Below, one piece after another: positions 1-50,500 of a stretch of DNA of 64,000 nt. The DNA lies in the NCBI GenBank assembly GCA_958009085.1, contig OY253671.1, positions 558,001 through 622,000 on the forward strand, read 5' to 3'. Source of the stretch: Protoeuglena noctilucae (lineage: Eukaryota). Under the pieces are notes generated by a model. That model was not told the DNA's origin. It searched no databases and worked only from the letters and a program-made list of their open reading frames with translations. Within the stretch, counting starts at the first letter, position 1; every line of letters starts with the position of its first letter. The translations under genes and the position numbers were made by a program.

Positions 1-2077
1 ATCGCCTCCTCCGCGGGCGAGCCGGTCTGGACCAGGAGCTCGGCGACGCGGTCCAGGTTGGCCGAGTCGGAGGCCCGGGGGTCGCAGAGGGGCATGAGGA
101 TGCCCTCCTTGCCCGCCCAGTGCGGGTGCTTGAGGTCGTACTGCCGCGACGACACCCAGTTGAGGTTGCCCATGAGCGTGTTGATCTCGCCGTTGTGGCC
201 CAGGAAACGCATGGGCTGCGCGGACGGAGCGGGAGGGGGCGGTGAGCGCGGGCACGGGGCCGGCAGGCGGGCGCGGGCGCACGGCCAGCTGCATGCGCAT
301 GGGCACGGGCGGCGGTGAGCGCTGCGCCTCTCGCCTGCGCCAGCGGCCACCGGGGGTTGGTGTTGGTGGAGAAGCGCGTGTGGTAGATGGCGAAGTTGCT
401 GACGTACGCCTCGTTCTGGAGGTCCTTGTAGAATTTGCCCAGCGCCTCGGTGCGCAGCATGCCCTTGTACACCATCGTGCGGCCCGACAGGGAGCAGAAG
501 TAGCAGTCGTCCGCCGCGGCACCGACCTTGTCGCGAGTGGCGCGCTCGATGCCCTTGCGGAGGAGGTAGAGCGCCCGCTCCAGCTCCTGCCCCTCCAGCT
601 TCTTGTCCGACTCGAAGACGACCTGCTTGATCACGGGCATGGTGGCCTTGGCCATGCGGCCCACCACGCTCACGTCCACGGGGACGTCGCGGACGCCCAC
701 CACCTTGAACCCGTCCGCCGCCGCGACTTCGTTGACGATGGCCATGCACTGCGGGCGCGGGGGCGGGTGGCGAGGGGCGTCGCGCGTGCACGTGCCAAGA
801 TGGCGCAGACTTCCTGCGTCGCCTGGGCGCGCCCGGCACCTTCTCGGCGACGGCCTTGTCTTGGGGAAGGAACAGCTGCCCCGCGCCCGCGTGGGGCCGC
901 GAGAAGGCCGGCACGTCCTTGGCAATGATGTCCCAGGGGACCTGCGTCATGATGCCCACGCCATCACCCGAGAAGCCGTCCGCCGGGCACGCGCCTCGGT
1001 GGTCCATGCACCCCACGGCGTGGAGCGCCTGGGACACGACCTTGTGGCTCTTCTCCCCCTTCAGGTTGCTGATGAAGCCCACCTGCGCGGAGGCGCGACA
1101 GCCAGGCACCTCTTGCAGGGCCACGTACGGGCCGCGCAGCCGAGAAAACGCGCGCGACACCTGCGCATCCATGCATGAAAACACGGGAGCGACTCGGCGG
1201 GGCTCCTCACCCCGCACGCGTCAAGCTCCTTAAGGATCTCCTCCTGGCTTGCCGCGCTGGGGGCAGGGACCCCCTCCGGCTTCACCCGGGCGGCCGCGAC
1301 CACCGACCGGGCACCGGACTTGACTCCTGGAGCGGAGGGACGCGACGACAGGGCGCCGGCCCGGGCGCCCCGCGACGCTTCCTGCGAGCCAACGAGTTGG
1401 GAGGGGTGGAACGCGGCAGGGGAGGGGCCGGGCGGTCCAGATGCAGGGCCTGCATCGAGATAAGAACGCGAAGAACGGATCGGCGACCGGCAAGCCGAGC
1501 CAGCGCCCTCCCCGGCGACGGGAGACGGCGCCCCGACGCCACCCCCTTTGGCTGCCTGGCCCAGGCGAGACGGGAGGGCGCCGGCCGACCGCCCGAGCCG
1601 GAGCGGAGCGTCGAAACTGGCCCGTATCGGGATCGCCGGGGGCAGGCCCAGGGGTGGCCAGGAACCTACGCCCCGTTGGAGGGCGCTGCGGGCGCGATTG
1701 CCGCGCGCACCGGCGCGGGCCGGCGAAGAAAGGGATCGGGTGGGAACGCCGACCGCACGGGTGCGATATATGGCGCGGCGGCTGCTCGCGGCGGCCCCAA
1801 TCCTGCTGGGGGCGGCAGCACGCTCGGCCGGAACCGCGCGGGGCCCGCCAGCCCCCTCGCAAGGCGCGCCATCGGGAGATAGGAGGGTCGGAGATCCCTT
1901 CGGCCCCCGCCAAATGCGACGCGCCGCCTGACCGGGCCCCACCCGCCCCACCTGCTCGATCCTCCCATCTCCCAGCGGCCTCTTGTCGTGCGCGCGCACC
2001 GGCGCATTTAGGCTGGCCGTCCGCTGCGAGAGCCCGCTGGCGGAAGCCACGGGGGTCGTCGCAGCTACGGCCTGCAT
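1..2077 (-). CDS. GLU1: Ferredoxin-dependent glutamate synthase (Fd-GOGAT), 5' part; runs off the window start
   Basis: Exons 2077-2000, 1381-1211, 1082-840, 748-335, 215-<1. Transit-like N-terminus, then the mature start CGVGFISNL, GCMDHRGAC..SGDG, HTRFSTNT and PRWPLAQ|PMRFLGHNGEINT (Fd-type). Intron 334-216 is GC-AG. Confidence 0.95.
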
Positions 2078-2386
2078 CGCCCTTTCTTCCCTCCCCGACC
2101 AATCTCCACTTTTCGTCCGGCTAGTGGTGAAAGGAGGTTCGACGCGGCAGAGAAAGGAACTGACGCGCGGCGGGGAGCGGGCCTCGTCGACCTGACTCCC
2201 CCAGTTCTGACAGCCCGCCTGGGTCGGACGCGCGTCCCCGCCCCATCTCGCCTCGCTGACGGCCTGCAGCCGCGATCAGCGACTTCAGGTGCAGCCGCAG
2301 CGAGCGACGTAGGGACGGGGGATCGTCGCCACGCTTGGTGGGGTTGCGCGAGGAGCGAACGACTGGCGGGGAGGGCCGGTAAGGAG
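2078..2386. promoter_or_regulatory. Probable bidirectional promoter, GOGAT / SPO11-3
   Basis: Divergent start codons about 310 bp apart. Similar head-to-head gaps occur at 17420-17707, 19985-20340, 33892-34202 and 39370-39748. Inferred from arrangement only. Confidence 0.5.
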
Positions 2387-4506
2387 ATGGCGGAGCCCCC
2401 CGCCAAGAAGAAGAGGGGCGCGAAGGGGGACGATGTGTCACAGCAACTCAAGAAGCGGATCGCGAAGGTGGGAAGCGCCAAAGACGTGCTGTGCGGCCCA
2501 GCGGACCTGCCCGCTGAGAAACTCCGTCTCCGGCGTCGCAGAGCGCGGACCAGGTGCTTCAGAAGGTCGCGGAGCTGGTGGATCAGCTGAAGGAGGCGGA
2601 CGGCGCGCCCAGGTGCGACGGGCGCTGGAGACCCCGGGCGCTGTCTTGGCGCAGCTGGTGCAGTTCGAGCGAGCCCCGGCGCCGCGTCCTTTGTCCCCAG
2701 GACAGTACTGGACGTCGCGCTTCCCCATGCTGTGCGGGAGGTGGTCGACAAGGGATCGCAGGTGAGAGCGCAGGCCAGGTGCCACCGCGGCGTGGACCAC
2801 GTGCCCACACTTACGCAGGGATTGGCGCCGCTAGCAGGACGTGAGCGAGGCCATCGAGTCTGCCATCCTAGAGGTCGCGCTCGGCATCTTGAGAGGGGAT
2901 GGCTTCGGCTACGACGTGCCCAGCCGCGCCAAGGGCAACCAGGTCTACGTGCCAGAGCTGGATCGGATTGTGCTGAAGGACGCCTCGTCGTTCCGGGCCT
3001 TCGCGAGCATGCAGACGTGCCGCAAGACGACCATCATGACGCGCATCATGCAGCTCGTGCATGAGCTGTGCCAGAAGGGCATCCACGTCACCAAGCGAGA
3101 CCTCTTCTACACAGACGTGAAGCTTTTCGAAGACCAGGGGCAGGTGAGATGGGAGCACGGTGTGCAACGCCCGCGCAGGGGGGGTCAATTGGCCGGAGGC
3201 CCTGCAACGTCGATGGGGACATTGTGCGCACGCAGTCGGACGTTGTGCTGGACGACCTCGCCTGCATGCTGGGGTGCACGCGGACATCTCTGCACGTCGT
3301 GGCGTCGGAGAAGGGGATCGTCGTTGGGCGCTTGAGGTTCAGGCGAGGGCAGGCCAGGGGGCGCTGTGCATGTTGAAATGTGCGGCGGGGGTGCAGTCTT
3401 AGATGGAGCCGGCGTCGAGGGGCCGGCGAGGGCTGCACGAGTATGCTGGCGCTGCATGGAAGAGCCGATTGCGCTGTGCACACGTCTGTACCCACGCAAA
3501 GCATGTTGCCTCGAGCGCAGGGAGGACGGCGACTTGATTGACTGCTCCCGGATGGGTGTCGGGGGCAAGGCCATCCCCCCACATATCCAGAAGGTGTCGG
3601 AGATCGAATCAGATGCCAAGTTCATCCTGTTGGTGGAGAAGGACGCAGCCTTCATGCGTCTGGCCGAGGACCGTTTTTACAACCAGGTGGGTGGGTGGGC
3701 GGCGCTCAATTGGGCGCAATCATGCTCTTGCGCGTTCAGATACATGGGTGCAAAGGCAGTCGCACACCCAACCTGCTTTTGCATGGCGAGAAGGCGAGAG
3801 GCGGAGAGCGTGCGCCCCACCTTCCATTGTGCGCAGTACCCCTGCATCATTCTGACCGCCAAGGGGCAGCCGGACGTGGCCACGCGCCTCTTCCTCAAGA
3901 GCCTGAAGCAGACGCTCAAGATACCCGTGCTGGCGCTGGTCGACTCGGACCCCTACGGTCTCAAGATCCTGTCCGTGTACATGAAGGGGTCCATGAACAT
4001 GTCCTACGACAGCAGCAACCTGACGACGCCCGACATCAAGTGGCTCGGGGTTCGACCCAGGTACGTCCCGCCCCAATGCGGCGCAGACGCATCCTGGAGC
4101 GTGCCGCCGGTCAGGGCCACGGCGCGAGCGAAGCTCGCCTGCTCGGCGCTGCCGCAGTGACTTGGACCGCTTCAACATCCCGCGCCAGTGCCGGCTGCCC
4201 ATGACGGAGGAGGACATCAAGACTGGCAAGAAGCTGCTTGAGGAGGATTTCGTCAAGGCGAACCCGCAGTGGGTGGCGGAGCTCGAGACCATGGTCAAAT
4301 CCAAGGCACGGGACGTCGCTCAGGGTCTCGAGGCGATGCTTCAGGATGCCCGGGCGTGGCATGTCCGGGTGCAGCAACGTTGCATTGTCGCTGCGCCTTC
4401 GTCCCCGCAGGAGAAGGCTGAGATCCAGGCGCTCAGCTCCTTTGGCTTCCAGTACCTCACGCAGGCGTATCTGCCGCTGAAGCTCCAGGAGGGCGACTGG
4501 ATATAG
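2387..4506 (+). CDS. SPO11-3: DNA topoisomerase VI subunit A (SPO11-3/TOP6A)
   Basis: 9 exons: 2387-2467, 2542-2612, 2701-2761, 2838-3143, 3236-3342, 3521-3686, 3837-4060, 4158-4305, 4411-4506. Motifs KRDLFYTD (catalytic Tyr), [35 protein letters not shown] donors at 3343 and 4306. Confidence 0.95.
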
Positions 4507-4729: not shown

Positions 4730-6300
4730 ATGCGGAACGGGGGCGTCAATGGCTCAGACGTTGAGAAAGGCCCCCTAATTGCGGGGGACGCCAAATCCGA
4801 TCCGAAGAAAGGTCCGCGCGCCGGCTCGGCCGCCGAGGGCCCCGCGCATGCTGGGTCGGGGCGCGGGGATTGAATCGCCAAGGTTTCCGCAGTGCGTGGA
4901 GCTATTCTCGCGCTCATGGTCCATTCGTACGCGCCGCAGCCGCAGGACAGGCTCAAGGATCGGCGATGGTCTCGGGGGCCTGCTATGTCGCCGCGTCGAT
5001 GTCCATGGTGCTCATGAACAAGGCCGTGCTCTCCTCCTTCCACTTCAAGTGCGAGAACTTTGTCGTTTTTATGCAATGCCTGACGGCCGTGGTCCTCGTG
5101 AAGGTCCTGGAGGGCATGGGCTACGTCAAGGTGGAGCCGTTCAATTGGGAGGTGACCCGCGCGGCGTCCCGGAGGCCGGGAGCGCGTGCGCGCCACGTAG
5201 GCGTGCGTCGTCACCCTGACGCACCTCCGCGCCCTCCACGCCGCCGCAGATCGTGAAGGTGTGGATGCCCGTCAACCTGCTCTTCGTGGGCATGCTGTCG
5301 TCCTCCTTCCTCGCCTTGGGCAGGATCGGGGTGGCCATGGTCACCATCCTGAAGAACTGCACCAATCTCATCACGATCGTAGGTGACCCGGGGGCCGCAG
5401 AGGCGACCATTTTCGTGCAGCATGGCCCGTCGTGCCACCGACCAGCACCGACCCAGTCCCGCAGGGGATTACTACCTGTACGGGAGGACGTACGGCTTGA
5501 ACATCTGGCTGTCCCTGGGGCTCATCATCATCGCGGCCATCATCGGGTCGCTGACGGACCCCGCCGCGAAGGCCGGGGACAGCCGAGGGTCCGCGCAGGG
5601 CTTCGTCGCCAGCGCCGTCCTCATGGGGTACTTCTGGCAGATCCTCAACTGCTTCTTCACGGCGGGGTACTCGCTCTACATGCGGGGCGCCATGGATAAG
5701 GTCAAGAACTACACGTCCGACCGGCAGAAGGCGACCCTGGCAGCGACGCGTTGATGACACGTGTTGGGTCACGCACGTTGCCAACATCTGACCTCGCTGC
5801 TCTCCCGCGCGCCGCAGCTGGGGGAGTTCTCTATGGTTTTCTACAACAACCTCCTCACGCTTGGGCCCGTCCTGGCGCTCATGTTCTTCTTTGGGGAGTT
5901 TTCGATCCTGCCGGAGCAAGAGGCCTGGGCCAATCCGTGGTTCCCCGTGGCCATGGTGAGGCCCGCCTTGCGCGCGGCTGCCGGCGCGGTCGCCCACGCG
6001 GACGGCGTGGTGCTGGTGCGTCCTACGCACGATGCGGCCCCATCGCCCCATCGCCCCGCGTGCGCCCCACAGTCCTTCTCGTGCCTCCTCGGGTTCCTCA
6101 TCTCCTTCGCATCTCTCTGGTTCCTCTCCAACACCACCCCCACCATCTTCTCCCTGGTGGGCTCCCTCAACAAGGTCCCCCTGGCGTTCGTGGGCATGGT
6201 CGTCTTCCGAGACCCCACGACCCCGGCCAACATCGCGTCCATCTGCGTCGGCCTGCTGGCGGGCGTCTTCTTCGCCCAGGCCAAGAGCAGCAGCCGCTGA
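4730..6300 (+). CDS. Golgi nucleotide-sugar (GDP-mannose, GONST/Vrg4-like) transporter
   Basis: Exons 4730-4811, 4946-5151, 5250-5382, 5465-5730, 5818-5955, 6073-6300. Motifs SMVLMNKAVLS, ILKNCTN, MVFYNNLL, TIFSLVGSLNKVP, with multiple TM helices. GC donor at 5731. Confidence 0.9.
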
Positions 6301-6401: not shown

Positions 6402-8377
6402 ATGAGCGTCGGCGTGCTGCCTCCGCGCCTGCGAACTCGAATCCATCGCATCAGCCGCTTCGGGCCCAGCCATGCAGTCCCGAGCTGTGAGAGCAGACTG
6501 CTCGATTGGCTCCAGCAGCGCGGCTGGAGCGATCATGCGCAGAGAGTGATCTTGTCTACCAGCGAGGATGGCGGCAGGGGGGTGAGGGCGCATGCAGGCG
6601 CAGGTCCATTTTTCTTTGACGATGTTCGTCCCATCCTCGTCATCATGGCCCCGTTCGCCGCAGCTGTTTGCACTGCAACAGCTGCGTGAAGGGAATGTCG
6701 CAGCTCGGGTGCCAATATCTCTCGCCATCACGCCGCGTGTGGCGCTGGACACGCCACTGGGGGTTGCGATGAGCGAAAATCTCCCAGCATGGTCGCTTAT
6801 CGCGGCCTTTCTGATGGCCACATCAAAGCTTCTATCCGATGACGACGAGTCCTCGCGATGGGACGGCAGCCTTGCGGCGTGGGGCCCATACGTCGAGTCG
6901 CTGCCGAGCAGAATTGGTGAGGGTGTGAGGGAGGTTGCAGTCGGGTGCAGAGGACGACTGCCGTGTTGCTATGAGGCTGCATGTCAGCCGTGTCATGGCT
7001 GGCTACCAATCACCCGCAGATACGGTGCTGGAGCTGGCTGCGGACGGGAGCGAGGCCCTGGCATACCTGCGTGGCTCGCCAAGCACGCTGGCTGCGCTCC
7101 AGATTGTGCGGGCCTTCCGAGCGTCGTGGGACGAGCTGCGCCCGGGTCTGCAGGACGCGGAGGAGCGGGGCATCGTGCCACGAGGCACCGCCGATGCACG
7201 GCTGGCGGTGTGGGCGTTCGCGGTGGCCCTGTCCCGCATCGCGAGGTTCGCGAGTCGGCCAGACATCGAGGCGCTTGTGCCCTGGATCGACATGTTTAAC
7301 CACAGCCCCAACGCCAGGAGCTTCATCGACCTGGCAGGGACCCAAGAGGTCGTGGTGCAGGCGGACCGTGCGTACCGGCCAGGCGACGAGGTCTTCATAT
7401 CCTACGGCCAGAAGTCGTCATCAGAGCTCCTTCTCTCCTACGGCTTTGCTCCAGTTCACCACGAGTGCGACTCCGCCTGGGTGCCTCTCGGCCTGCCACC
7501 CTCCCCGTCCCGATCTGGGGGTGACGAACACCGCCAGCGCGTTGTCAGGGCGCTGGCTGCGAGGGGCGACTTCTTGACGGCGACTCGCAGCGACGTCGTC
7601 GAGTTGTCCGAAGATTTTGCCGTGCTGTTGGTGCGTGTCGGGGCTGCGGGGCAGGTCCCCGAGGGCGTGATGCAGGCCGCGCTGTGCGTGGCGGCATGCG
7701 AGGGTGTACCCGGTGCTGACGTCAAGGCGTGGGTCGACAGGACGATGAGTCTCCCTGAAGACCGCCTCACCAAGGAGCACACCGCGCTTGCGGCGGGGAC
7801 TTTGGCAGACGCTTGCTCTTTGGCGCTCAAGGTGAAGTGCCTGGGCAGACCAAGAGAGCCCTTGCAGTCGCTCGCCAGCCGTGCACGGTCGCTGTTCTAT
7901 GAGTCGGGCCCTGTTCCGCGAATGCAGGGTTTCGCGAGGAAAATGCAAGACAACGTCGACTTGCTGCGCTCGATGGAGACGGCAGGAGGGGCAGCAGCAG
8001 CGGCACCCCGGGAGGCACCCCACCAGCCAAGCCCCAGCCGTCCCATGTCAACAGGGCGACCGCAGGCGAAGTGCGCGCCGTCAGGCGCCGGGGACGACCG
8101 GGGGCGAAGCATGGAGGCCACCGTGACGGCGCTGCTCCCTTCGTGGGCCGCTGTGGGCAGTACGAACGCTGGCAAGGGCCGAGCGGCGTCGCCAGCACCG
8201 AGCGGGGCACGGAGGCGAGGCAAGCGGGCTGACCCCAGCCCGGCCGGGGCTGAGGCGCCAGACGAAAGGGACAGGCGGGTCGCGGTGCAGGTCCTGCGTG
8301 CCGTGGTGGCCGAGCAGCGGGTGATTGCCGGTGCGGAGTTTGCTCTGCGCCGCTTCGTGCGGTCGGCTTCGCGCTAA
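6402..8377 (+). CDS. SET-domain protein-lysine methyltransferase (Rubisco LSMT/SETD3/6-like)
   Basis: Exons about 6402-6581, 6664-6916, 7020-7831, 7928-8377. Motifs GRGLFA, WGPYVESLP, LVPWIDMFNHS, EVFISYG..ELLLSYGF. Confidence 0.85.
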
Positions 8378-8573: not shown

Positions 8574-11085
8574 TCAGGGAACCTCAAGCATCCCCGGCGT
8601 ACCCTCCTCAGGCTCCCTGGGCGCTTCGTCATCAAGGATGGGCACCCTGGGGAACCGAGCACTGGCCACGACCTTCCCCGTCACGATCTCTACCGCAGAC
8701 GATTTCCTCAGCGCCCCAGACTGCAAAGCCGCACCCTTGGCTCCCATATCTGGATAGCCGCCCCCCGTCGTCCTGCACGCGCGCAGGGGCAATCAAGTCA
8801 GGCAGCAGAGGAGTCACCTCCGCGCGCCGGCGCTGCTGTCCGTTCGGCGGCGGGTGCTCCAACGCAGCCCCGCGCAGCGACGGAGGTCACCTGGACCCCA
8901 ACGACCCCACCGATCCTCCCGACCGCCCCGCCGCCTGCAGCGCCGCCATCTCCGCGCCCTCTGCGACTCTCTGAGCCTTCTCTTTCCGGTAATCCAAGGC
9001 TTTGCTCATCGCCGCCCGCACCCGCGCGTCCGCCTTCGTGTCCAGCGCCGCGTTGGCCCACCGGCCCTCCCGCTCGGGTCGTGAGCCAGGCCCCGGGCCA
9101 GCCCCGGCCCCGCCCCGCCCGCCATCCAGCGCCCCGTGCCCCGCGTCGCTCTCCTCGCCCGCTCCGCCGCGAGGCGACCCCGCGCCGCCGTCCCTCGCAC
9201 CCGCGGCACCCGCATCGTCACCTCCCTCGTCGTCGCTCGCGGGGCTTGGCGAGGGGCTCGGCGAGGGAGAAGGGGGCGCTCCCTGCCGCCGGCGGTAGCT
9301 CAAGGCCTTGGCGAGGCGGTCGGCGGCCAGCGACGGCACCGGCATGGGCAGGCGGTTGATGTTGGGCGTGGTGGGCCGCGCCCCGCGGCTGGCGTTGGCG
9401 CGCTCGTAGACTGCGTTGGGGTCCTGCTTGGCCATGTCGACGCGCCGGCGCAGCGAGGACGTCCCGCCCAATATGCGCTCCCGCAGGACGTTGTAGTGCT
9501 TGAACTTGCCGACCAGCCACTCGATCCCTGTCCTCTCCACGTCCGCCAGCCTGCGAAAACCGCGTCCGCTCGGCTCGCCCCTTGCGCCCTCCGCGCGGCC
9601 ATGCACGCTCCATGCCATCGAAACTCATCACATCTACTGCCAGTTTGGATGAATCGTCTCTATCCGGCCCTGCCCCCGGACCATGCACTCGCCTGGGCTT
9701 GCGGTTGTTCTGCTCCTGGAACGCAGCCGTCCACGGCCGCAGCTCCTCCTTGAGCGCCTTGTACTCGCGCAGCATGGCCATGTACTGGTCCACCACCTCG
9801 GCCTTGAACGTGTTTCGGACACGCTTGCCCGACGCCGCAAAGACGCGAGGCACGCCCCGGCCCCCCCCGGGGCCCATCGGCATCGCCGTGCGGCTCTGCG
9901 CAGAGAAGGGCCGGGACAGGGCCCTTGAGACGGCGCTGCCGATGCGAGGACGACACGGCACTCCTGCACGGTGCAGTGCGACGAGGCCAACCAGGCCCAT
10001 GAGGCACCTTTGCGGAGGCGCCGCTGGGCACCAGGGCGCGGTAGTATTCCTCGATGGCTCGGAGCATCCGCGACGCGGCGGACTTGCGCCGCTGCGACGC
10101 CGCGATCCGCATGCGGTGTTCGGGCGACTTGGGCACGCCCAGCATCCGCGCCGACACCTCCTCCCGCTGCTGCTCGCTGCGGTCGCGGAATGGCCGGGCA
10201 TGGGCTCGGGAACTCCGGTCAGCACAGAGCGCGCGCTGCACGGCCCTGGCACTGCGCTGCGACCTCACGTCATGCGGCGTCCCTGCGTGCCCAGGGCGAT
10301 CTTCCGCCGCGTGGCCTTCGTGTGCCTCTTGCCCGTGTGGGCCTCCGACATCCGCAGACGCGTCTCCGCGCTCAGCTTCTGCCCCTTGTTCCACGCATCC
10401 TGGCCCTTGGCGCCCTTGTTCCACGCCACGCGCCCTGTCGTCGCCCCCACCACCTTGGCGCGGAACGTCGGGTCCTCCCACTTGCTCCGCAGAGCCGCCG
10501 CAATCTTGGCCCGGTGCTCCGGCGACATCTGGCGCCTCCTCTGCGGCAGCGTGCGGCCGGCAACGTCGCGAGCGGTCCAGCGGCGCCAACGGCATGCCCC
10601 GGCGCGCCCGAGGAGCGCACCTTGGGGGAATCGGCGACCTCTTCGCTCGTCTTCAGGGGTCCAGGCTCGCTGCTAGCCAGGGAGGGGGCCGCCACGAGGC
10701 GCGGCCGCTGCGGGGCATGGCTCCCTGCGGGCACGACGCCGGGTCCAGGCTCGCGGCGACGGCGCGGCTTCCGGGGCGCGTGGCGAGCGCGCGTGACAGG
10801 CACAGGACGGAGAAGAAGGCCGGTGCAGCGCTGCTCCGCAAGGCCGCCGCGCGAGGCGGATTCCGCGGGGAGTCTGGCCGGCCCCAACTTTCGGGGAGCA
10901 TGAAATCCTCTCCGTGGCCCGCATCCCGGGGCGCCCCGGACCCCATTGGCACACTCGATACACCCGAGGAGGAAAAGCAGCCGAGGAGCGCGCGGTGTGC
11001 TCTGGGCTGGGCAGGCCGCAAGCCAGGATAGAGGGGGGTGTTCGGCACAAATTCGAGCGCGTCCCGAGGGGCCAGCCAAGCGCAT
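8574..11085 (-). CDS. Protein with tandem NUMOD3-like motifs and a C-terminal coiled-coil (LKEELRPW..F...NRKP) domain; possibly organelle-targeted
   Basis: Exons <=11085-10621, 10540-10269, 10176-10008, 9895-9693, 9550-8891, and a probable last exon 8772-8574 (alternatively stop at 8887). Repeats MSPEHRAKIA, WNKGQKLSAETRLRMSEAHTGKRHTKATRRKIA, KSPEHRMRIA. Start codon uncertain. GC donor at 9692. Confidence 0.7.
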
Positions 11086-35278: not shown

Positions 35279-35299
35279 GAGGTTTGCTTTTTTAAAGTG

Positions 35300-36068: not shown

Positions 36069-36670
36069 GCGCTCAGAAGCGGACCTTGAGCTGCGCCGTC
36101 TTGCTCTCCGCTGGCTGCACGGCCCAGGCACACGGCTGGAGCTCCGATGCTGTGGAGCCCTGCGAACGCGACGGCGAGCGTCGATGGTGGGCGGCAATCG
36201 AACCGGAATAGCGAGCAGAAGCGCTGGGGATCGGCGACGTGCCTGTGGCACCGGGCACAAGCCAAGGAGGACCGGAGCGCCGACTGCCACGCGATCTCCG
36301 AACTCAAATGTGGCCAGAGATGATTCTGTTTCGGGTCCGGGGCTCGAGGGCCTGCGTGGCATCACGAGGTTGTCACAGTGATCCCCGCTGGCGGGAATTG
36401 GCCTTGTCGGGGTTGGCAGGTCCCATCGCGGGCTGCAAACTCGCTTGTTCGACTGTGTCAGCACGGGCTTGGCAGGGGCAGGCTCTTTGGTTTGCTGCGA
36501 CCGCCACCACATTCTGCGAAGGTGCGGTACGCAACGATTCTACGACCTAGGGTGCGCGCGGAGTCCGATGCATGGCACGCATCAATGACAGGGCGGCGGG
36601 GTTGACGAGGAGCCTTCCTTCAGAACGAGTGGCCGCAAGTAGAAGCCGCTAGTCACACTGAGGGGCAAGT

Positions 36671-39369: not shown

Positions 39370-39748
39370 GGTCACCACCGCCTCTGACAGTCGCCCTCAG
39401 GCCGCCACCAGCAACTGAAAGCGCCTGCTCCCGGAGACTGGCCCAAACGGCGGAGATGAGCCACTTGTGGGTCGCCTCGGGACCGCCAATGATGCCGATG
39501 CACGCGAATGGCAATCACGATTGCGATGGGATCGGGTCTGCCGCCCATCTCTCTCAACCGCGCCCCTGTCGGACGCCAGTCGACGCTGGAGACCCGTTTC
39601 CCGGCCCGAAGGGCCCTGCGACGCGCAGTTTCGAGGTCTCCGCGAATCCTTCACCTTCAGTATAATCCGTTGCGGTCGCCCGCAGCCCGACCAGAGACTC
39701 CCCGGCTTCGTTGCGCAAACCCGCGCCTGTGCGAGTAGGGGAGCAGGG

Positions 39749-40649
39749 ATGGCGAGGGCGGACTACGTGCTCTCGAAGGTGGACAAGGTCATCAACTGGG
39801 CGAGGCAAGTGGGGCGCGGTGGGGCGCGGGGGACACGTGCACGCGTGAACGCGCCTGGCCCCGCGTTTGTCGGCCGTCCCGTGGCAGCTCCCTGGCAACA
39901 ATCGTTTACTCGTGCGCGCAGGACGGGTTCGCTGTGGCCGATGACCTTCGGGCTCGCGTGCTGCGCCGTGGAGATGATGCACGCCGGGGCAGCGCGCTAC
40001 GACCTGGACCGGTGAGGCCGCCTCCGCCTCCCCGCTCCCTGCCGTGACACCGTTGCGTGTATCCACGGACGCTGGCCTGAACTCGGCCCCTCGAGTCGCC
40101 GCGCAGGTTCGGGATGATCTTCCGTCCGTCGCCCCGGCAGTCCGACTGCATGATCGTCGCCGGGACGCTCACGAACAAGATGGCCCCAGCGCTGCGCAAG
40201 GCGAGCGAAGTTTTGCGCCTGTTGCCATGGGCGTCGGCGGCCCTGGCGCGCCGCGCGGTCGCCAGGACTGGCGCGAGGCGTCATCCCTGCCTGTCGTGTG
40301 CTCGTTCACCTGCAGGTGTACGACCAGATGCCCGAGCCCCGCTGGGTCATTTCCATGGGGTCTTGTGCGAACGGCGGGGGCTACTACCACTACTCGTACT
40401 CGGTGGTTCGGGGTTGCGACCGCATCGTGAGTGGCAGTGGCTGGGCAGCGCGATGCCGGCGCCTGGACCCAGTCCTCGCTGACCTTTGTGTGGCTGACGC
40501 CGCCGCTGCGCCGCTTGCAGGTCCCCGTCGACGTCTACGTGCCGGGGTGCCCGCCCACGGCGGAGGGGCTGCTGTACGGGCTCTTGCAGCTGCAGAAGAA
40601 GATTCGGCGCATGAACAAGGCCACGACCTTCTACTACGAGGAGGCGTGA
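39749..40649 (+). CDS. NDUFS7: Mitochondrial complex I PSST subunit (NDUFS7/NuoB)
   Basis: Exons 39749-39804, 39922-40011, 40107-40200, 40316-40426, 40521-40649. Motifs [45 protein letters not shown] donors at 39805 and 40201. Confidence 0.96.
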
Positions 40650-40728
40650 ATGTATGGGGTGGCTTTGGTAGGACGTGCTAGCTTGAAACCCGCTCTGCAT
40701 CGGCACGCGTGTGAGGTTCGCGAGCTCG

Positions 40729-42366
40729 TCACATGCACTGCTTGAGCGCGTCTCCCTGGCCCTGGAAGAAGAGATAGCTGAGGAAGAAATCCGCGACGAA
40801 GATGCAGACCAGGGAGATGACCACGGCACTGCGAGGGCGGGCGAGGGCCAGCTGGTGCGATCTGGTGCGACTTGCATCAGCTGAGGAGCTCCCTCCTTGA
40901 GAAACGTTCCGCAGCGGCACTTGAGCCTGCTCGCTTGTTAGGCTTGGCCGCATCCTCACCTGGTGGTGCCCTCGCCGACGCCCTTGGCCCCACCCGAGGT
41001 TGTGAAGCCCCACGCGCACGAGATGACAGCGATCACGCCGCCAAAGATGACAGACTTGATCTGCGGAAGCATAGGCAATCGCAAGGGTCAGCCATGCAAC
41101 CTGCGTGCGACCACTCTTGGCTCTCGTCCCGCTAGGGCAGCCGCTCACCTGCGAACTGACCACGTCCCAGAGGGTGGTAGCCCGCGCCGCCGAGTCGAGG
41201 ATGATGTTGGCGTTGACGGAGTAGACGACCTCAGCCAGGAAGGTGGAAGCCGCCATGCCCGTGGCGAAGCATAGGATGTTGAGGATGGGCATGGCCACCA
41301 TGCACGCGAGGACCCTCGGAGAGATGAGGTAGTCGACGGGATCGCTCCCGAGGACCCGCAGCGTGTCCGTCTGCTCAGACACCTGCATGGTTCCGAGCTC
41401 GGCCGCAAAGGCGCTCCCCACCCGCCCGGCCAGGATGATGGCTGTGACCACCGGGGTCAGCTCGCGGCAGAGAGCGAGAGACAAGACCCCGCCGACGGAT
41501 CGCGTCAGCCCCAGCTTGGCGAATTCCCTGCGAGGTGCCGAGGGATGGTGCCGAACATAAACACCGCACCGGAGGGTCCCCGAACCCATGCCCCCGTCTA
41601 ACCCAGGCGCAGGCCTCACCGCACGAACTGGATCGTGAACACCATGCCTACGAAGGCAGAGGTGAGAAGCGCCACGCCCAGGGACCGCGGGCCCACGACC
41701 GTCAGCTGGTCGATGAAGTTGCGGCGGTGGACTTTCAGGAGGAACGCCCGGCGAAGCACGAGACCTGCGGAACGCGAGCGGCATTGCAAGGTATAACGAT
41801 GCCCTCTCGACCAGGACAATGCCACGGTGCAGCCAGACAGCCGCCCTGCGCTTCGCACTGACCAAAGAACGTGACTGCTGCAAAGCCCCTCCACATCCAC
41901 GTGGGAGGCTGCCAGGAGTCCACCAGGCGCGCCAGCCACGACTTCTCGACCACCTCAGGCACCGAGGCGCCTCCATCCTCGCTCGCAGCGCCGCCCGTGG
42001 CCGCGGCACGGCGTGCATCCCCCCGCGTCGCTCTTTGAGGCCACGCCCTTCCAAGGGCGCCGGCGATGTCGAGTCTGATGGCGAGAACGCATCGATTGCA
42101 TGGTGAGCAACATCAATAGGGCCCGTTCGCGCCACCGTCTTCCTTCGTTCGCGGAAACGTTCGCTTCAGGTCCGTCAAGCGGATTGAAACGCTCACCTCC
42201 GGCCATTGGACAAGCAGGGCCTGAGACGAGCCGACGTCAACTCGGAGTCGAAGGCGGACGGCGTGGATGGGCGAGGCGTCTCTGCGCCCTTACGCGGGCA
42301 GAGGTGCCCTCGCCATGGCGCCCTGGGTCCCCCCACGACCCCAGCGGTCAAGACGACGCCATTCAT
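40729..42366 (-). CDS. TGD1: Plastid lipid ABC transporter permease TGD1 (MlaE family)
   Basis: Exons 42366-42197, 42074-41863, 41764-41620, 41527-41149, 41060-40960, 40828-40729. Motifs VGMVFTIQFVREF, RELTPVVTAIILAGRVGSAFAAELGTMQVSEQTDTLRVLG, GGAKGVGEGTTSAVV. The transit-peptide exon is less certain. Confidence 0.92.
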
Positions 42367-43104
42367 CCCGCCATGCACTCGAGGACCCCAGCCAGCGCTC
42401 GTTGACGTCGCTCGGCGGAGCCGAGACCCAGGCTGAGCACTCGGAAACCAGACACACGGGTCAAAGCGCCGGGAGTCACGAGGGCAGCCGCGATGGAGGG
42501 GAGCGGGGGTGCGGGCGGACGAAAAAGACCGAGACGCCCCGCAGCAAACGAACGTGGCAACGAATTGCCACGCAAATGGCACAGGTGCACAGACACTGGC
42601 GACGAGTGCTGCCAGTTTCAGCTGGAGGAGAGCACCAAGCAAGCCCCCTGCGGGCTACTGTGGCCATTGCCGTGTCAGGGCCCGCGTGGGCAAGCTGCCC
42701 CGCTGGCGAGCTGGTCTGAGTGCCCACAGCAAGAGAGGGTGTGGAGGAACAAAATGCGCACGGGCTGCGCTTTCGCCATCAAGACGCTGCAGGTGACGTC
42801 CGTAATCCTGCTGGATCTCACGAAACCGAGTTGCCGCGGCGAGCGTCGGGGGCTCGGCAAGTTGGGACGCCACGCCTTACCCATATGGCCGCGACTGCTC
42901 CGGGCATATCATCGCCCGTTATGGGAACTGCACGATTGCGAGTGACTTGCGGACACCAGCGCTGCGTCGCGCTGGGTCCGATGTGCCTGGCGGCGCTGGC
43001 ATTGAGCGCTGTTCGGCCAGCGTTGCAGGGACCCCGCGGGCGCTTGAGCAGGTGGTTTGGGTGCGCTTCTAATGGTCCAACACATCTCTTAGCAACAGAA
43101 CAAC

Positions 43105-46100
43105 ATGGCATTGTTCACCTCGACCTCGTCCCGGCGCCATCGACGCGGAGGCAGTGCCGAGGACAGCAGTGGCTCCCGTTTCACGCCGCAGAGCCTCGCG
43201 CGGAGAGCGAGACTGGCTGAGCGCAGGACAAACCGTCTGCAGAATGCACGGCTGGGCTGCTCGGCTCTCGGAGAGAGCGGCGCACGGGCGGAGAGGGATG
43301 GGGGCAGGGGCCCCACGTGCCGTGCGGCCAGGTGCCTTGCCTGCGCCGGCCCCTTGCCCGTCCGTCTCGTCCCGCTCGTCCCTTCGCTCACCTCCATGCG
43401 TCTCCCCTCCCGCAGCGTCGCCTCCGAGGCCCGCCCGGCCCCCGCCCACGCCGCGTCTCCGCCGGGCCCGGCGCAGGGCCCGACCTTCCAGGAGGCCATC
43501 CAGCGCCTGCAGGACTACTGGAGCCGCCAGGGCTGCGCCGTGTGGCTGCCGCACAACACCGAGGTCGGCGCAGGCACCATGAACCCCGCGACCTTCCTCC
43601 GGGTGCTGGGCCCTGAGCCGTGGAACGTGGCATATGCCGAGCCCTCCATTCGCCCAGACGACTCCCGCTACGGGGACAACCCCAACCGCGTGCAGCGGCA
43701 CACCCAGTACCAGGTCATCCTGAAACCCGACCCGGGCAACTCCCAGGAGCTCTTCCTGGGCTCTCTGGAGGCGCTGGGCATCGACACGCGCAAGCACGAC
43801 GTGAGGTTCGTGGAGGACAATTGGGAGTCGCCTGCGCTCGGGGCATGGGGTCTGGGATGGGAGGTCTGGCTGGACGGGATGGAGGTCACGCAGGCGAGGG
43901 ACAGCATGCGTGGGAGGATAGGCGATGATGACACATGCGGTGTGCGGCTCCCGTCACGCTGGGGGCGACGCTGAGGTGCCATGACGCGCGTCCGCCGCCT
44001 TCTCGCCGCAGTTCACATACTTCCAGCAGGCCGGCAGCAACGCGCTGGCTGTGCCCGCGGTGGAAATTACCTACGGCCTCGAGCGTATCGTGATGTCGCT
44101 CCAGGGCGTGACGCACTTCAAGGACATCCGGTACAACGACACGGTGAAGTACGGCGAGATGTTCCTGCAGAACGAATACGAGATGTCCGTCTTCAACCTG
44201 GACGAGGCCGACGTCGAGGACCAACGCAAGCGTTTCGCGCTGTTTGAGAAGGAGGCACGGCGGCTGCTGGAGAAGCGCCTGCCCATCCCCGCCTATGACC
44301 ACATTCTCAAGGTGACGCGAGGCCCATGGACAGGCTATGGGATGGGAGAGAGCTCTCATGGAGTGGACAGTGCGTTGGCATGAGGCCGTCTGCACCGCGG
44401 ATGCGCTGGAAGTTACGATCTGTGCCTGCGCTGCTGCCCGCAGATGTCCCACGCCTTCAACGTCCTCGACGCCCGCGGCGCCGTCGGCGTCACGGAGCGC
44501 GCCGCGTGCTTCGCTGCGCTGCGGTACCTGTCACGCGAGGTCGCCAAGCTGTGGGTGGAGCGACGGGGAGAGCTGGGCCACCCGCTGGGCCAAGTGCAGG
44601 AGCCCGCGGCCCCGCACGTGACGGTCGACGTCTCCCAGGCACCCACGGCGCCCGCCGACTTCGTCCTTGAGATTGGCACGGAGGAGCTCCCGCCCGACGA
44701 GGTGGACAACGCTCTGGAACAGCTGAGGGCAGCGGTGCCCAAAGCCCTCCAGGCGCTGCGGCTCGAGCACGGCGCGATCGAGGTCGACGGGACGCCGAGG
44801 AGGCTCGCGGTCATCGTCTCGGTGCGTTGCGTGGACCATGCCATGCCGCGGCAATCGATCCTCGGCCCTGCAGAGCGTCCCTGGCTCCAGCAGGCTGAGG
44901 GTGGCAATCAGAGGAATGCGATGTGTTCTGGACTCTTATCCCGCTGCGCTTGCAGGATTTGGCCCCGCGCCAGCCGGACCTGAAGGAGCGGGTGCGGGGA
45001 CCCCCCATGAAGGCGGCCCTCAAGGACGGCCAGCCTACCAAGGCGGCGGAGGGTTTCTGTCGCAAGAACGGCGTGGCCGTGGAGAGCCTCGAGGTCGAGG
45101 GGGACTACGTCTGGGCCACGGTCGAGTCCAAGGGCCAGCCTGCCGCGGCGGTTCTGGCAGAGGTGAGCTGTGCCAGAACCTGGCTGTGCTGGCTGAGTTG
45201 GAGTACCCTTGGCAGTTTGTGCAGTGCGCGGCGCTCGCCTGCCCAGCCTCCTGACCAGGCCCACAGCCATATATAGCGGGACTGACACGCACAGCGATTG
45301 CCGGGCATAGCAACACGCGCTCAGTCGGAAGCGGGTGCCCGTGTGTCGCAGGCGCTCCCGGGTCTGATCTCGGGGCTGTCCTTCCGCAAGTCCATGCGGT
45401 GGGACACGCAGCTGTCCTTCTCGCGCCCTGTTCGGTGGCTCGTCGCCATGCATGGGGCGTGCCCGGTGCCCGCCGTGTGGGGCACGCTGGTGGCTGGCCG
45501 TACGACGCGAGTGCTGCGGAACGCGGACGAGCCGGCGGTGGACCTGGAGAGCGCCTCGGACTACCGCCGGGTGATGGAGAGCGCCGGGATCGACTATCGT
45601 GTCGAGAGCCGCCGGCAGGGCATCTGGGAGGCCGCGCAGGCGGTGGCCTCTGGGCTGGGGACCATCCCGGAGTCGGCAAAGGGCGACCTTCTCAAGGAGG
45701 TATCGAACCTCGTCGAGTCTCCCACCGTGGGTGAGCTGCGCCGCACACCCGGCGACATGGGACAGGCGCTGGGTGGCGCCGAGCACCCTGGACCACCCTG
45801 GGTACGAGATGCTGGGCGCTGCCGCCCGCAGTGATGGGGTCGTTCGACGAGGACTTTTTGGAGCTGCCGCCCGAGGTTTTAGTGATGGTGATGCGGAAGC
45901 ACCAGCGGTACTTCCCGGTCTATGACGGCAAGGCACTCAAGCCGTGCTTTGTGACGGTGGCCAATGGACCCATCGACGAGGACGCCGTGCGGGAGGGCAA
46001 CCAGGCGGTGCTGAGGCGAGTGCAGACCCTAGCTGCGTACCTTGCTTGCGTGCTTACGATTGCCCTTCAAACGAGCATGGCGTGGCTGCCTGGACGCAGG

Positions 46101-47201
46101 GCCCGGTTCTCGGACGCGCGCTTCTTCTACCAGGACGACCTCAAGACTCGACTGGAGGACGTGAGGCCGCGCCTGGCCAACACGCTCTTCCAGAAGGACC
46201 TCGGGTCTCTGCTGGACAAGGCAGAGCGGGTGGAGAAGATCGCACCGGGGCTTGCGAGGGCCATGGGGCTCGGGGAGCACGCGGAGGTGGCGGGGCAGGC
46301 GGCGCGGCTGGCGAGGGCCGACCTGGCGACCAGCATGGTCATGGAGATGACGGCTCTGGCGGGCACCATGGGCCGGCACTATGCCGAGAAGGAGGGGCTG
46401 CCCCCAGCCGTGTGCGAGGCCATCTTCGAGTCGGTGCTGCCCCGGTCGGCCGACGACGCCGTGGCGCGGACCGGGCCGGGCATCGTGGTGTCCGTGGCGG
46501 ACAAGGCCGACTCGCTCGTGGGGCTGTTCGCGGCCAAGTGTGCCCCCACCGCCAGCGCGGACCCCTACGGCCTGCGCCGGGCGGCCCTGGGTCTCCTGCA
46601 GACTCTCGTGGAGAACGGCGTGCGCGCGTCCCTGCGCCAGGTGCTGGGGCAGGCAGCCGCGGTGCAGCCGGTGGCCGTGTCGCCCGCGCTGGCGGCCGAG
46701 GTGGAGGGCTTTGTGCAGAAGCGACTGGAGCAGATGCTCGTGGACCGCGGGTGCGCGGTGGAGGCGGTGCGGGCCGTCCTGGCCGAGCGCGGCGACGACC
46801 CGGCCCTGGCCGCGGCGTCGGCGGCGGACCTTGACCGGGAGATGCGCGAGGGCGGGCGCCTGGGTGCGGCGATGGAGGCGCTGGCGCGGCCCACGCGCCT
46901 CGCCCGGGGCAAGGACATCGACGCCGAGGCGCGCGTGGACCCCGCGCTGTTCGAGAAGGACGAGGAGCGGGCCCTCTACGAGGCGGTGGAGGCCGCCAAG
47001 GGAGCGCTGCGGCCGGGCATGGCGGTCGGGGTCTTCCTGGAGGCTGCCGCGCCCCTCTGCGCCCCCGTCGCGGCCTTCATGGACAACGTCTTCGTCATGG
47101 CCGAGGACCCCGCCGTGCGCCGCAACCGCCTGGCGCTCCTTCGCGACGCCTCGCAGCTCGCGTCGGGCGTGCTGGACCTGTCGCAGCTCCCGGGGTTCTG
47201 A
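43105..47201 (+). CDS. Organellar glycine--tRNA ligase, bacterial-type fused alpha-beta (EDD1-like)
   Basis: 8 exons. Alpha part: [48 protein letters not shown]. Beta part: [34 protein letters not shown] donors at 43894 and 46016. Confidence 0.95.
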
Positions 47202-47575
47202 TTTGAAGTGGCGCGTAGTGATTGGAAGCGCGCTGGGAAGCACCGGCGGGCCCTGCTCTCGGCAGGGTCTCTTGAATCTGATCCTGCCGCCTATGTCGTG
47301 GGTGGTCGCGACACCAACGTCGTTGCATTGCTGCTCCACGAGGGCCAGTCGTCAACGTGAAAGCCCAGGTCCGATTCAAGGGTGCGCACTGGGTGCTGCA
47401 CTTGCACGTGTGGTGCCGACATCCACAAGACATGACATTGCTCAGCAAAGGGGGCGGAGGTGGGAGGGACGAGGCTAGGTCTAGACGTCTCATGGAATAC
47501 ACATAGTCAACTTTTGATGCATCACAGGATCGCGAACACGAAAGGGCGACACGCGGCGTGGCTGACGAAGCGCCA

Positions 47576-50500
47576 TCAGTCGTCTCTCTCCAGCGTGAGG
47601 CACGTGCCCCTCATCACCCAGTGCGAGGGGTCCAGGGTCGTGGGCATGGAGATGCTGATGACGTAGTTAGTCGAGTGGCCCGTCGTCGTCAGCTGCCCGC
47701 GCCTCTCGGTGGTCCGGTACAGGGGACACTCGTAGGCACCAATTGCGTTCGGCTCGAACCCGCGCGTAGGGCGCAGCAGCACCATGGGCGCAGGGGTGAA
47801 CAGCTCCCGCGGCCGCGCCTCGACCAGCGTGCCGCTCTCCAGGTCCCACGCGGCCCCTTCCAGGTACATCCCTCGCACCAGGGCGCCGTCCACCGGGCGC
47901 CGGGTGCGGTCCTCCAGGAGCGGCTCCCACATGCCCTGCATCTCGTACGCGTACGCGACCGTGTCGATCGGGATGCGGTGCTTGCGCGCGTAGTTCTGCC
48001 TGCGGGCGGGACGGGAGGGCGGCAGGGCGATGAGTCGTCCTGCGTGTGTGGGCTGTGCCGCAACATGTTGGCACCCCAGGCCACCGCAAGGCCGCTCGCC
48101 TAATGGCGGTGAGGAAGGAGTGGGTGAAGAAGAATCCGGAGAGCCAGTAGATGGCGGGCGGGTGGGTGTCGATCCACCGTTGGAACTCGTGGATGCGCAT
48201 GAGTAGCAAGTCAAAGTACGACCCAAGGGGCTTCAGGGACGGGTAGGACTTGGCCAGCCAGGCCGCGGGGACGGCGCCGACGACGAAAGACTTGAACACG
48301 TCGTCGAGCTCCCGCGTCATGACCACCACGCCGTCAATGGCCCTCTGCAGCTCGTGCAGCGACGAGCGGATCTCGCGCAGCAGGCGATTGTACCGCACCA
48401 CCTCCTGGTTCACCACCTGGTTCATCGACTGGTTGTAGTCGGGCGGGTACTTGTCCGCCGCACGCGCCGCGTCCAGGTCCTGCGAGTGAGCCAAAGCAAC
48501 GCGAGTCAGAGACACGGTGCGAAAGGTACACCACCTGCGGTGCAGCATCGGCACAGCGACGCGGCAGCTGTGCAGGGGTGTAAGCGCTGGCTGCGGCACG
48601 GCAGTGCCGCCTCAGGCCAGTCGCCCCATCTCAGATCTCCGGCACTACCGCAGCTCCTCACCTGGGGCAGCCTCGAGGCCATGTCGGCGCAGATCTGGTG
48701 CACGAGCTGCTCCTCCACCCGCATGTCCGCCTGCTTCCGCACCGCCGACCCCGTCACCGCGTCCGCCAGGTCCTCCAGCAGCGCCGTGGCCTCCTGCAGG
48801 TCCTTGGCGATGTCGGCGTTGCGGTGCAGCCCCAGGCACTCGGGGCTCGCGGTGGGCGGGAGGCCGTGAACGGCCGCGTGGAGGTCTTCCAACGCAAAGC
48901 CCCCGGGCGGCACGAAGGGCCCCGCGGGGTCGATGAGCGGCGCCGGCTGCAGCGAGGCCAGGTCCGTTGTGAAGATGCTCTCCAGCAGCGTGGCCATGAG
49001 CCGCCGGTCCTTGTCGTCCGTGACGCGCCCGCCGTAGTTGATCTCGCCGACGATGTACTTGATCGCCTTGAGCGGGTGCTCCTGCCCCGGCGCCGCCTGC
49101 ATCAGCAGGTTGCGCAGCTGCGTGAGCGAGATGGTAAAGTCACCGTCGCTGAAGGAGTAGGGCACGCTCCACCCCGCGGGGCCGTAGCCGCCGCGCTCCT
49201 TGACCACCGCGTGGAGGAAGGAGAGGGCGTAGACGAAGCGAGCGAAGGACTGGTGGCGCACGGACGCGGGGTCCTCGTCCGCCTCGGGCCAGAGGCCCCG
49301 CTGCCGCATAGCGTCCATGTTCAGGCACCGCAGCATGTTGGCCTTCATGCCCTGCTGGGGCTCGTTGCAGACCTTGATGGCCTCGCGCAGCAGGTAAAGC
49401 GGCATGTCGCCCGTGGGCATGCTCGTGATGAGCAGGCGGAACTGACGATTTGTCTCCTCGGGCGAGAGGTTGCGAAGGAAGCGCTCCAGCCAGGGCAGCC
49501 AGCTGGGCGCCAGGTGGGCGTTCTGGAGCACCACCCAGTCGCCGTCGCGCACCGCCGGGCCCAGGACGCGCTCCGCCTTGGGGCCCTGCCCGCGGCCCAG
49601 CGACACGCTCACGACGCTCTTGCGCATGCCCACGCGCTCGGCGTACTGCCAGATGGCCTGGATCGGGTCCAGACCGGGCGCCAGGAGGAAAATCATCGGG
49701 CGCGTCGACGTGCTGTGCGCGAACACCTGCTCCATGTCGAGCGGCGGCGGCTCCGTGAAGCGCGCGCCGAGCGTCTCGGACACAAACGCCCGGGCGGCGC
49801 GCACGGTCAGGTCCGGCCGCAGCGCCCGCACCACCAGGAGGCGGTCCCAGGCGTCCAGCTGCGGCCCCTCCTCCAGGGACCCCCGGGGCAGGCCGGCGCA
49901 GGACTCGTCCATGTCGTCGATCGCAGCCCGGGCGGGCGGCAGGGCGTTGTACACGGCCTCGGGCAGGCCGTGGAGCCTCGGGTGCACGGCGGCGAGGCGG
50001 CAGACGCGGAACCACGTGGACTGGGCCATCCAGGCGGGCGGCGAGGCCTCGCGGGGGTGGCGCGCCGTGCTCTGCCCGCCGGACAGCAGGAACCGGACCT
50101 GCTCCGGGACGGATCCCGCGGCGGGCCCCGGGTCGCGCTGCTTGAGCCGCACGGCGACAAGCGTGGTGAAGGTGAGCTTGTCCCGTGCGAAGAGGCCCAT
50201 GCAGACGTTCTCGAACACGGTCCAGAGGAGCTCGGCGCTGATGGCGGCCAACCGGCGGGGGACGTCGTGGCTGGCCGGGGCGCGCTTGATGGACGCCACG
50301 AACAGCCCCACAAACCAGTCGAGGCTGAAGACGTACATGGGGTCGAGGGCGTTGAGGTCTTGCGTGCAGAAGAAGAGCATCGCCGCGTACAGGCCGACCT
50401 TGTGGAACAGCCGCCGGGCCTCCTCCAGTCGCTCCTGGGCGGCCTCGATGCCGCGGTTCTTCTCCTTGACCTCCAGAGACAACCGCTTCGACTCCTGCGG

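Follow-up and report, generated by a model that had tools for sequence, protein, structure and literature searches.

GC-AG introns are abundant in a 64-kb nuclear DNA window from an intron-rich, GC-rich core chlorophyte alga

We analyzed the introns of a 64-kb stretch of DNA from Protoeuglena noctilucae (contig OY253671.1 of assembly GCA_958009085.1, positions 558,001 to 622,000), which we call the window and which is the scope of all counts given below, and found that about a quarter of them appear to begin with GC instead of GT while ending in AG. In the survey of Iwata and Gotoh (2011; PMC3033335), such GC-AG introns account for 1.3% of introns over 61 species and for 2 to 8% in most green algae. 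Among the figures given there are 2,100 GC-AG introns out of 5,308 in Aureococcus (39.6%, at a genomic G+C of 69.5%), 831 out of 3,743 in Micromonas pusilla CCMP1545 (22.2%; G+C of 65.9%), 1,611 out of 21,048 in Chlorella sp. NC64A (7.7%; 67.1%), 52 out of 1,907 in Micromonas RCC299 (2.7%; 64.1%), 457 out of 18,839 in V. carteri (2.4%; 56%), 13 out of 549 in O. lucimarinus (2.4%; 60.4%), and 85 out of 4,210 in C. reinhardtii (2.0%; 55.2%, as given there). The same paper reports that the 5' 11-mer of the U1 small nuclear RNA (snRNA) is canonical in Aureococcus and in both Micromonas strains. In Emiliania huxleyi, 56% of donors in 241 curated junctions are GC, and ab initio models under-call them (Feldmesser et al. 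2014; PMC4028052). GC-AG shares of 14 to 17% in Aureococcus strains, about 14% in Pelagomonas, and 0.32% in the lower-G+C Aureoumbra are given in a preprint (bioRxiv 10.1101/2024.10.30.620910), and the text of Pucker and Brockington (2018; PMC6310983) gives no GC-AG figures per alga. Our literature search found no report of abundant GC-AG introns in a pedinophyte-like chlorophyte or in another one comparably rich in introns. A pedinophyte nuclear genome paper has reportedly been published.

The window comes from the nuclear genome of a core chlorophyte green alga that is rich in introns and very rich in G+C. Like the GC-rich algae described above, it combines a G+C content of at least about 64% with a GC-AG share far above 2%; G+C is 65 to 70% in every 4-kb bin, and G+C at third codon positions (GC3) is 0.83 to 0.96 across all 18 modelled genes. 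An earlier note on this DNA, made from the letters alone, had treated the phenomenon as new, but it is of a kind known since 2011 and already published for other GC-rich algae, and the window organism would be a further member, with a high share for an intron-rich green alga. M. pusilla, a green alga with a genome of about 66% G+C, is like the window organism in that about a fifth to a quarter of the introns are GC-AG and the AG acceptor is kept; its excess has been put down, at least in part, to G+C content (PMC3033335). Unlike M. pusilla, a member of the Mamiellophyceae with few introns (3,743 in that data set), the window organism has about five to six introns per gene and, by its glycyl-tRNA synthetase (GlyRS) gene, falls among the core chlorophytes. 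It shares with Chlorella NC64A the intron-rich core-chlorophyte background, a nearly equal G+C, and a raised use of GC-AG introns, but its own share is about threefold that of NC64A (25 of 100 against 7.7%, p = 1e-7, for introns of one window that are partly ab initio predictions). GC-rich genomes (65 to 70%), common GC donors, and canonical acceptors are also found in E. huxleyi and the pelagophytes, where standard gene finders place junctions wrongly and G+C content is blamed by the respective authors. These are a haptophyte and stramenopiles, lineages unrelated to the window organism, and they differ from it in that pelagophytes have fewer than one intron per gene and E. huxleyi uses GC as its majority donor. 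The introns of the window also resemble the U2-type GC-AG introns of animals and plants in their GC..AG termini, their stronger flanking donor consensus, and their lack of a U12-type motif, but their frequency is 10 to 25 times higher than the value of about 1% found there.

Transcript data demonstrate that GC-started segments of the window are removed from mature RNA. Fourteen sequencing runs matched positions 37000 to 46999; four RNA runs hold 55 to 62% of the words of this interval, which is the value expected of spliced RNA, and four runs of unrecorded kind hold 100% of them and behave as DNA. We compared three RNA runs (three samples from one study) and one DNA run with positions 30500 to 50499, and the joint figures rest on 15 of the 43 joints in this interval. 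All 15 joints are present in each of the three RNA runs and absent from the DNA run, whose contig is colinear with the window across all 20 kb. After every equivalent cut position had been listed for each joint, a GT..AG reading on one strand was possible for 11 of the 15, while for the remaining 4 a GC..AG placement was the only one possible. Two of these lie on the minus strand in a DUF938 methyltransferase-like gene, one in its upstream part (36160 to 36242, cag/GCACGT, with CT..GC as the sole possible placement) and one at 36352 to 36444 (caa/GCGAGT). The other two lie on the plus strand in the gene for the 20-kDa (PSST) subunit of complex I (39805 to 39921, gag/GCAAGT; 40201 to 40315, aag/GCGAGC). 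Four GC-AG joints among 15 are far in excess of a 2% background (p = 1.8e-4), and the two in the methyltransferase-like gene lie outside the sites that the earlier note had named. Three further RNA joints, which carry inserted letters and join distant places, were set aside as probable assembly chimeras.

A transcript-derived protein covers the TOP6A/SPO11-3 gene on the plus strand. A protein search with one TOP6A exon found P0122, a protein of 250 residues encoded on a JGI contig of 980 nt; the corresponding genomic span is 1,280 nt, and the contig is therefore spliced. P0122 is identical at 250 of 250 residues to the spliced model, which uses GC donors at 3343 (intron 3343 to 3520, cag/GCGAGG) and 4306 (intron 4306 to 4410, aag/GCACGG) and GT donors at 3687 and 4061. 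An in-frame GT donor at 3337 gives a product of 248 residues that does not match P0122, and a donor placed at 4333 by our gene finder disagrees with P0122 and is also disfavored by the overlap of the Pfam Toprim profile. Taken together, 6 of the 19 transcript-proven introns are GC-AG (p = 1.4e-6 against a 2% background). The earlier note had put GC-AG introns far above the usual 1 to 2% and had named the use of nearby GT donors in transcripts as the outcome that would overturn it; the frequency claim is borne out by the RNA joints and the transcript-proven introns alike, and GT did not replace GC at the sites covered by RNA or by P0122.

Four more predicted GC introns fit one-sided boundaries of RNA pieces exactly at the leftmost equivalent cut, which is the position reported for all such boundaries. 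In the ABCF gene (38889 to 38970, minus strand, aag/GCGAGC), an RNA piece begins at 38970 on the donor side, and banning this donor costs the ab initio gene model 13.1 bits (bit values below have the same meaning). In the organellar GlyRS gene (46016 to 46099, plus strand, gag/GCGAGT), pieces from three RNA runs begin at 46098 on the acceptor side. In the dynein heavy chain gene (48000 to 48099, minus strand, tag/GCGAGC), an RNA piece stops at 47997 on the acceptor side, and the contig stretch that separates two pieces, 381 nt long, equals the modelled exon content. In the RCC1/UVR8-like gene (32694 to 32788, minus strand, cag/GCGAGC; 8.6 bits), a 209-nt RNA piece stops at 32693, again on the acceptor side.

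Homology and profile continuity fix further junctions. For GlyRS, we scored all frame-keeping GT or GC donors and AG acceptors within 45 nt of each of six junctions by mean BLOSUM score against 30 homologs, and the modelled junction was the best at all six. The GC donor at 43894 (intron 43894 to 44011, plus strand, cag/GCGAGG, joining VTQ to FTY) scored 376.0 against 349.4 for the best GT donor, 26.6 mean BLOSUM units ahead, and that at 46016 scored 273.1 against 256.2, 16.9 units ahead; in addition, a tblastn match of 92% identity reaches position 43893. In the WDR74-like gene, a representative search gave 17 matches, of which P0245 was the sole full-length ortholog, and both GC junctions align to it without gaps: the donor at 18230 (intron 18230 to 18354, plus strand, cag/GCGAGT) scored 286 against 262 for the best GT donor, and that at 19091 (19091 to 19171, plus strand, cag/GCGAGT) scored 257 against 241. 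In the gene for ferredoxin-dependent glutamate synthase (Fd-GOGAT), one exon matches the Pfam GATase_2 profile at 90 to 224 and the next at 225 to 295, with the junction PLAQ/PMRF; the profile is unbroken at 224/225, and the GC intron at 216 to 334 (minus strand, cag/GCGAGA; 12.9 bits) is therefore fixed to the residue.

The share of GC donors was estimated with an ab initio finder, an exon-chain dynamic program that combines codon log-odds, splice-site matrices built from 21 confident introns, and a prior on intron length. When retrained on its own output the finder drifted, merging genes and accepting GCGCGC donors, and the site matrices were hence kept fixed on the 21 confident introns. With GC donors at a 20% prior, it called 103 introns, 29 of them GC, and recovered 19 of the 21 confident introns; at a 5% prior, the figures were 102, 25, and 18. 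Restricted to GT donors, it called 88 introns, none of them GC, recovered 14 of the 21, and lost 405 bits (6,088 versus 6,492 to 6,493). The curated model holds 103 introns, of which 29 are GC: 14 with independent support, 11 that are ab initio only, mostly losing 6 to 24 bits if the donor is banned, and 4 that are doubtful because of a poor consensus or a loss of less than 1 bit. The GC share is thus about 25% (25 of 99 without the doubtful introns, 29 of 103 with them). It comes to 29 of 95 introns over the range that the earlier note covered and to 11 of 38 in the 20 kb compared with the RNA runs (30500 to 50499), and about 15 of the 18 to 21 genes carry at least one GC intron. The estimate in the earlier note of about 20% (about 23 of 115 introns, in 15 of 21 genes) was a fair one.

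The ab initio GC introns are spread over several genes. Two on the minus strand at 14 to 15 kb, both probable, are at 14639 to 14776 (aag/GCGAGT; 19.2 bits) and at 14867 to 14965 (gag/GCGACG), where the donor may be 14965 or 14953, both of which are GC. Another probable one is at 9551 to 9692 on the minus strand (cag/GCGAGT; 24.3 bits). Three are predicted on the plus strand in a lineage-specific gene at 12.1 to 13.8 kb, at 12790 to 12880 (aag/GCGAGG; 13.5 bits), 13099 to 13191 (caa/GCAAGG; 19.6 bits), and 13624 to 13708 (aag/GCAAGT; 10.5 bits); a protein search with this gene found only P0241, a read-through open reading frame (ORF) of the window itself. A condensin-II-subunit-like gene on the plus strand has two probable ones, at 27938 to 28026 (gag/GCGAGC; 12.2 bits) and 28312 to 28424 (cag/GCAAGG; 5.9 bits). 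A Pfam search at E <= 10 with the exon translations at unverified junctions gave nothing usable.

All 15 donors named in the earlier note carry GC at the positions it gave, and all lie at predicted exon ends. Those at 3343, 4306, 39805, and 40201 now have transcript-level proof from P0122 or the RNA joints; those at 38970, 46016, 48099, and 32788 coincide with one-sided RNA boundaries; and those at 43894, 18230, 19091, and 334 agree with homology or profile continuity. The last three are less firmly placed. The donor at 34604, of a probable intron in the Trx-Grx gene (34604 to 34690, plus strand, agg/GCGAGA; 3.5 bits), has weak homology on its side, in that the flanking exons are collinear on the thioredoxin chain 6x0b_A (111/112) with E-values of 0.28 and 0.24. 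The probable intron at 32991 to 33076 in the RCC1/UVR8-like gene (minus strand, gag/GCGAGG; 22.4 bits) is an ab initio prediction whose replacement donor is also GC. The donor at 5731, of a probable intron in the GDP-mannose-transporter-like gene (5731 to 5817, plus strand, aag/GCGACC; 6.3 bits), is likewise ab initio; a frame-keeping GT donor lies 30 nt upstream at 5701 (AAG/GTCAAG), alignment with yeast Vrg4 is ambiguous between the two, and all 10 codons between 5701 and 5731 end in G or C, like coding sequence here.

We compared GC and GT introns in a supported set (14 GC and 23 GT introns) and in a combined set to which ab initio introns losing at least about 5 bits were added (25 GC and 57 GT introns). 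An exonic AG precedes the donor in 13 of 14 GC versus 16 of 23 GT introns in the supported set (Fisher p = 0.10) and in 22 of 25 versus 36 of 57 in the combined set (p = 0.019), in line with the earlier note, which saw such an AG before nearly all GC donors and suggested a reliance on it. The score for matching U1, computed without position +2, is higher for GC donors in the supported set (mean of 6.39 versus 5.52, Mann-Whitney p = 0.005) and in the combined set (p = 0.001). In the combined set, A at +4 together with G at +5 is seen in 21 of 25 GC versus 29 of 57 GT donors (p = 0.004), and A at +3 in 6 of 25 versus 1 of 57; G occupies +3 in 54 of the 57 GT donors. Intron lengths are 81 to 178 nt for GC and 74 to 222 nt for GT introns, the acceptor is CGCAG or TGCAG in 25 of 25 and 51 of 57, and the pyrimidine fraction upstream of the acceptor is 0.65 and 0.66, respectively. 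Using /[AG]TATCC donors and TCCTTAAC-like branch sites as the marks of U12-type introns, we found a U12-type donor (ATCC at +3 to +6) in none of the 82 introns, and a minor-spliceosome identity was rejected. Thus, GC donors fit the U1-complementary consensus better than GT donors do, and the introns are otherwise alike.

Judging from these sequence features, we think it probable that these are ordinary U2-type GC-AG introns that make up about a quarter of introns and that became common through AT-to-GC pressure while the snRNAs stayed unchanged. The C at +2 would be a tolerated mismatch to U1, offset by stronger pairing at neighbouring positions. A strong AT-to-GC pressure, from mutation bias or biased gene conversion, would lie behind both the high GC3 and the preference for GTGAG over GTAAG donors, and T-to-C changes at +2 would be fixed wherever the rest of the donor site is strong enough, so that a change in the snRNAs would not be required. 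A stronger flanking donor consensus is the classical compensation in GC-AG introns generally. A scan of the window with Rfam at gathering thresholds gave no matches and no snRNA gene. Several points weigh against this explanation. G+C alone fails to predict the GC-AG share, as seen in RCC299 (64.1% G+C, 2.7% GC-AG) and NC64A (67.1% G+C, 7.7% GC-AG) (PMC3033335); published shares vary several-fold among green algae of about the same G+C, so lineages must differ in something besides composition. Iwata and Gotoh regarded the cause as an enigma, for which they proposed U1 small nuclear ribonucleoprotein (snRNP) proteins or base modifications (PMC3033335). The frequency was sampled from one 64-kb window and from 15 of 43 RNA joints, and for 11 of the 25 GC introns counted, the basis is a finder that made at least three false GC calls: 18584 to 18667 in the WDR74-like gene, which is coding sequence by the P0245 alignment; 41954 to 42060, which lies inside an uninterrupted RNA piece of 215 nt; and the donor at 4333. 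Offered GG and GA as decoy donors beside GC, the finder called 3 to 7 GG and 7 to 13 GA donors against 22 to 24 GC, and when GC was forbidden, decoy donors bridged real GC introns. Because of these false and decoy calls, the ab initio part of the GC count is soft. Finally, the enrichment of exonic AG is not significant by itself in the supported sets, and the donor weight matrix selected the ab initio sets and so biases their consensus upward.

These points bear unequally on the other explanations. The earlier note favored relaxed or altered recognition of the 5' splice site through U1 or U6 variants; in its wider form, a variant or second U1, a changed U6 ACAGAGA box, or a change in U1C, Luc7, or U1-70K would let GC be accepted nearly like GT. 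The share of about 25%, which equals or exceeds the top green-algal value and is well above the 7.7% of NC64A at similar G+C, speaks for such a change, as does the insufficiency of composition alone, for which the 2011 authors proposed differences in snRNP proteins or modifications (PMC3033335). However, most donors are still GT, a GC donor requires flanks that match better than those of a GT donor, as an unchanged U1 predicts and as the classical compensation would have it, M. pusilla and Aureococcus have canonical U1 5' ends (PMC3033335), and nothing in the window points to altered recognition machinery, so we regard this explanation as unlikely, although it deserves some weight. A more specific version, in which a chlorophyte possibly near the Pedinophyceae rose independently to the top green-algal GC-AG share by a lineage-specific recognition change (for example a U1 variant or an altered U1C or Luc7 that tolerates or pairs with C at +2) and not through composition alone, seems to us a long shot; if true, this alga would offer a natural setting in which to study how position +2 is read. 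It is highly improbable that the GC donors are modelling artefacts that hide nearby GT donors, or no splicing in vivo, and an ordinary true GC share. The three false finder calls, the GG and GA decoys, and the frame-keeping GT alternatives at 3337 and 5701 are what would be expected of artefacts, but six GC introns are proven at the transcript level, with 3337 excluded, eight more have independent support, and 4 of the 15 RNA joints are GC-AG; for all 14 supported introns the artefact explanation is refuted. The narrow range of intron lengths, 80 to 140 nt, and the strong differences in intron positions among relatives (loci L001 and L016, described below) could suggest copies of a spreading introner element with a GC donor. 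In an all-against-all blastn comparison, however, the 82 introns gave one non-self match (13 nt) against nine in shuffled controls, and the GC introns sit at conserved positions of unrelated genes and have nothing in common beyond splice signals. Introner copies were therefore rejected within the window, and we consider this origin exceedingly improbable.

If GC donors are as common as this, annotation that forbids or heavily penalises them will get roughly every fourth intron wrong, along with most genes of more than one exon. As the earlier note had anticipated for standard gene finders, our finder, when limited to GT donors, found 14 of the 21 confident introns, and the proteins that the database lists for this DNA run on through introns: entries P0121 (3456 to 4157), P0241 (12634 to 13647), and P0242 (about 17950 to 18230), all on the plus strand, are prokaryote-style ORF calls and not gene models. 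Few GC-rich algae with very abundant GC-AG introns are on record, and a green alga rich in introns now joins them; more cases with many introns per gene would ease testing of the question raised in 2011, whether composition or machinery sets the GC-AG share.

The window carries about 18 to 21 intron-rich nuclear genes on both strands, with identities assigned from Pfam matches on 93 exon translations and on ORF translations. In addition to the Fd-GOGAT, TOP6A/SPO11-3, GDP-mannose-transporter-like, WDR74-like, condensin-II-subunit-like, RCC1/UVR8-like, Trx-Grx, DUF938 methyltransferase-like, ABCF, complex I 20-kDa (PSST) subunit, organellar GlyRS, and dynein heavy chain genes described above, there are genes for a protein kinase and for an MlaE/TGD1-like permease. 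GlyRS is 60 to 67% identical to its best database relatives, which include Micractinium, Pedinophyceae sp. YPF-701, Chlorella, and Chlamydomonas, with the best named matches at 60 to 62%. In a quick single-gene tree, it groups with two environmental sequences beside the pedinophyte, within core Chlorophyta (support of 92 in the Shimodaira-Hasegawa-like approximate likelihood-ratio test, SH-aLRT), and we tentatively place the window organism among the core chlorophytes next to the pedinophyte on this single gene. A metagenome scan for relatives gave 18 loci, with which a comparison of orthologous donors with the window was not possible. The closest relative, L001 (positions 1 to 3300; 70% G+C, GlyRS 72% identical), carries GlyRS as an ORF free of introns, against at least six introns in the window gene, and a segment of L016 (286 to 1050; 85% identical) has about three GT introns within one window exon. 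These differences indicate a fast turnover of intron positions among these algae.

The dynein heavy chain gene occupies 47576 to 62370 on the minus strand and has a GC3 of 0.957 and one exon of 7.7 kb (50617 to 58314); the long ORFs that overlie it on the plus strand are antisense shadows. The intron-bearing nuclear gene at 8708 to 10528 on the minus strand encodes, in its first large exon, a NUMOD3 motif (E = 2e-10), a DNA-binding motif better known from homing endonucleases. A single RNA contig at 30500 to 32400 runs from the 3' end of the kinase gene (plus strand) into the RCC1/UVR8-like gene (minus strand), and the convergent transcripts of these two genes therefore abut or overlap. Inside the kinase gene, at 30597 to 30627, the contigs of all three RNA runs part from the window sequence and leave loose ends to either side, which could reflect a paralogue or an allele. 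At position 46253 in GlyRS, the DNA has T while all three RNA runs have G, a synonymous change from CTT to CTG (Leu) that more likely arises from the RNA samples and the assembly representing different strains or populations than from editing.

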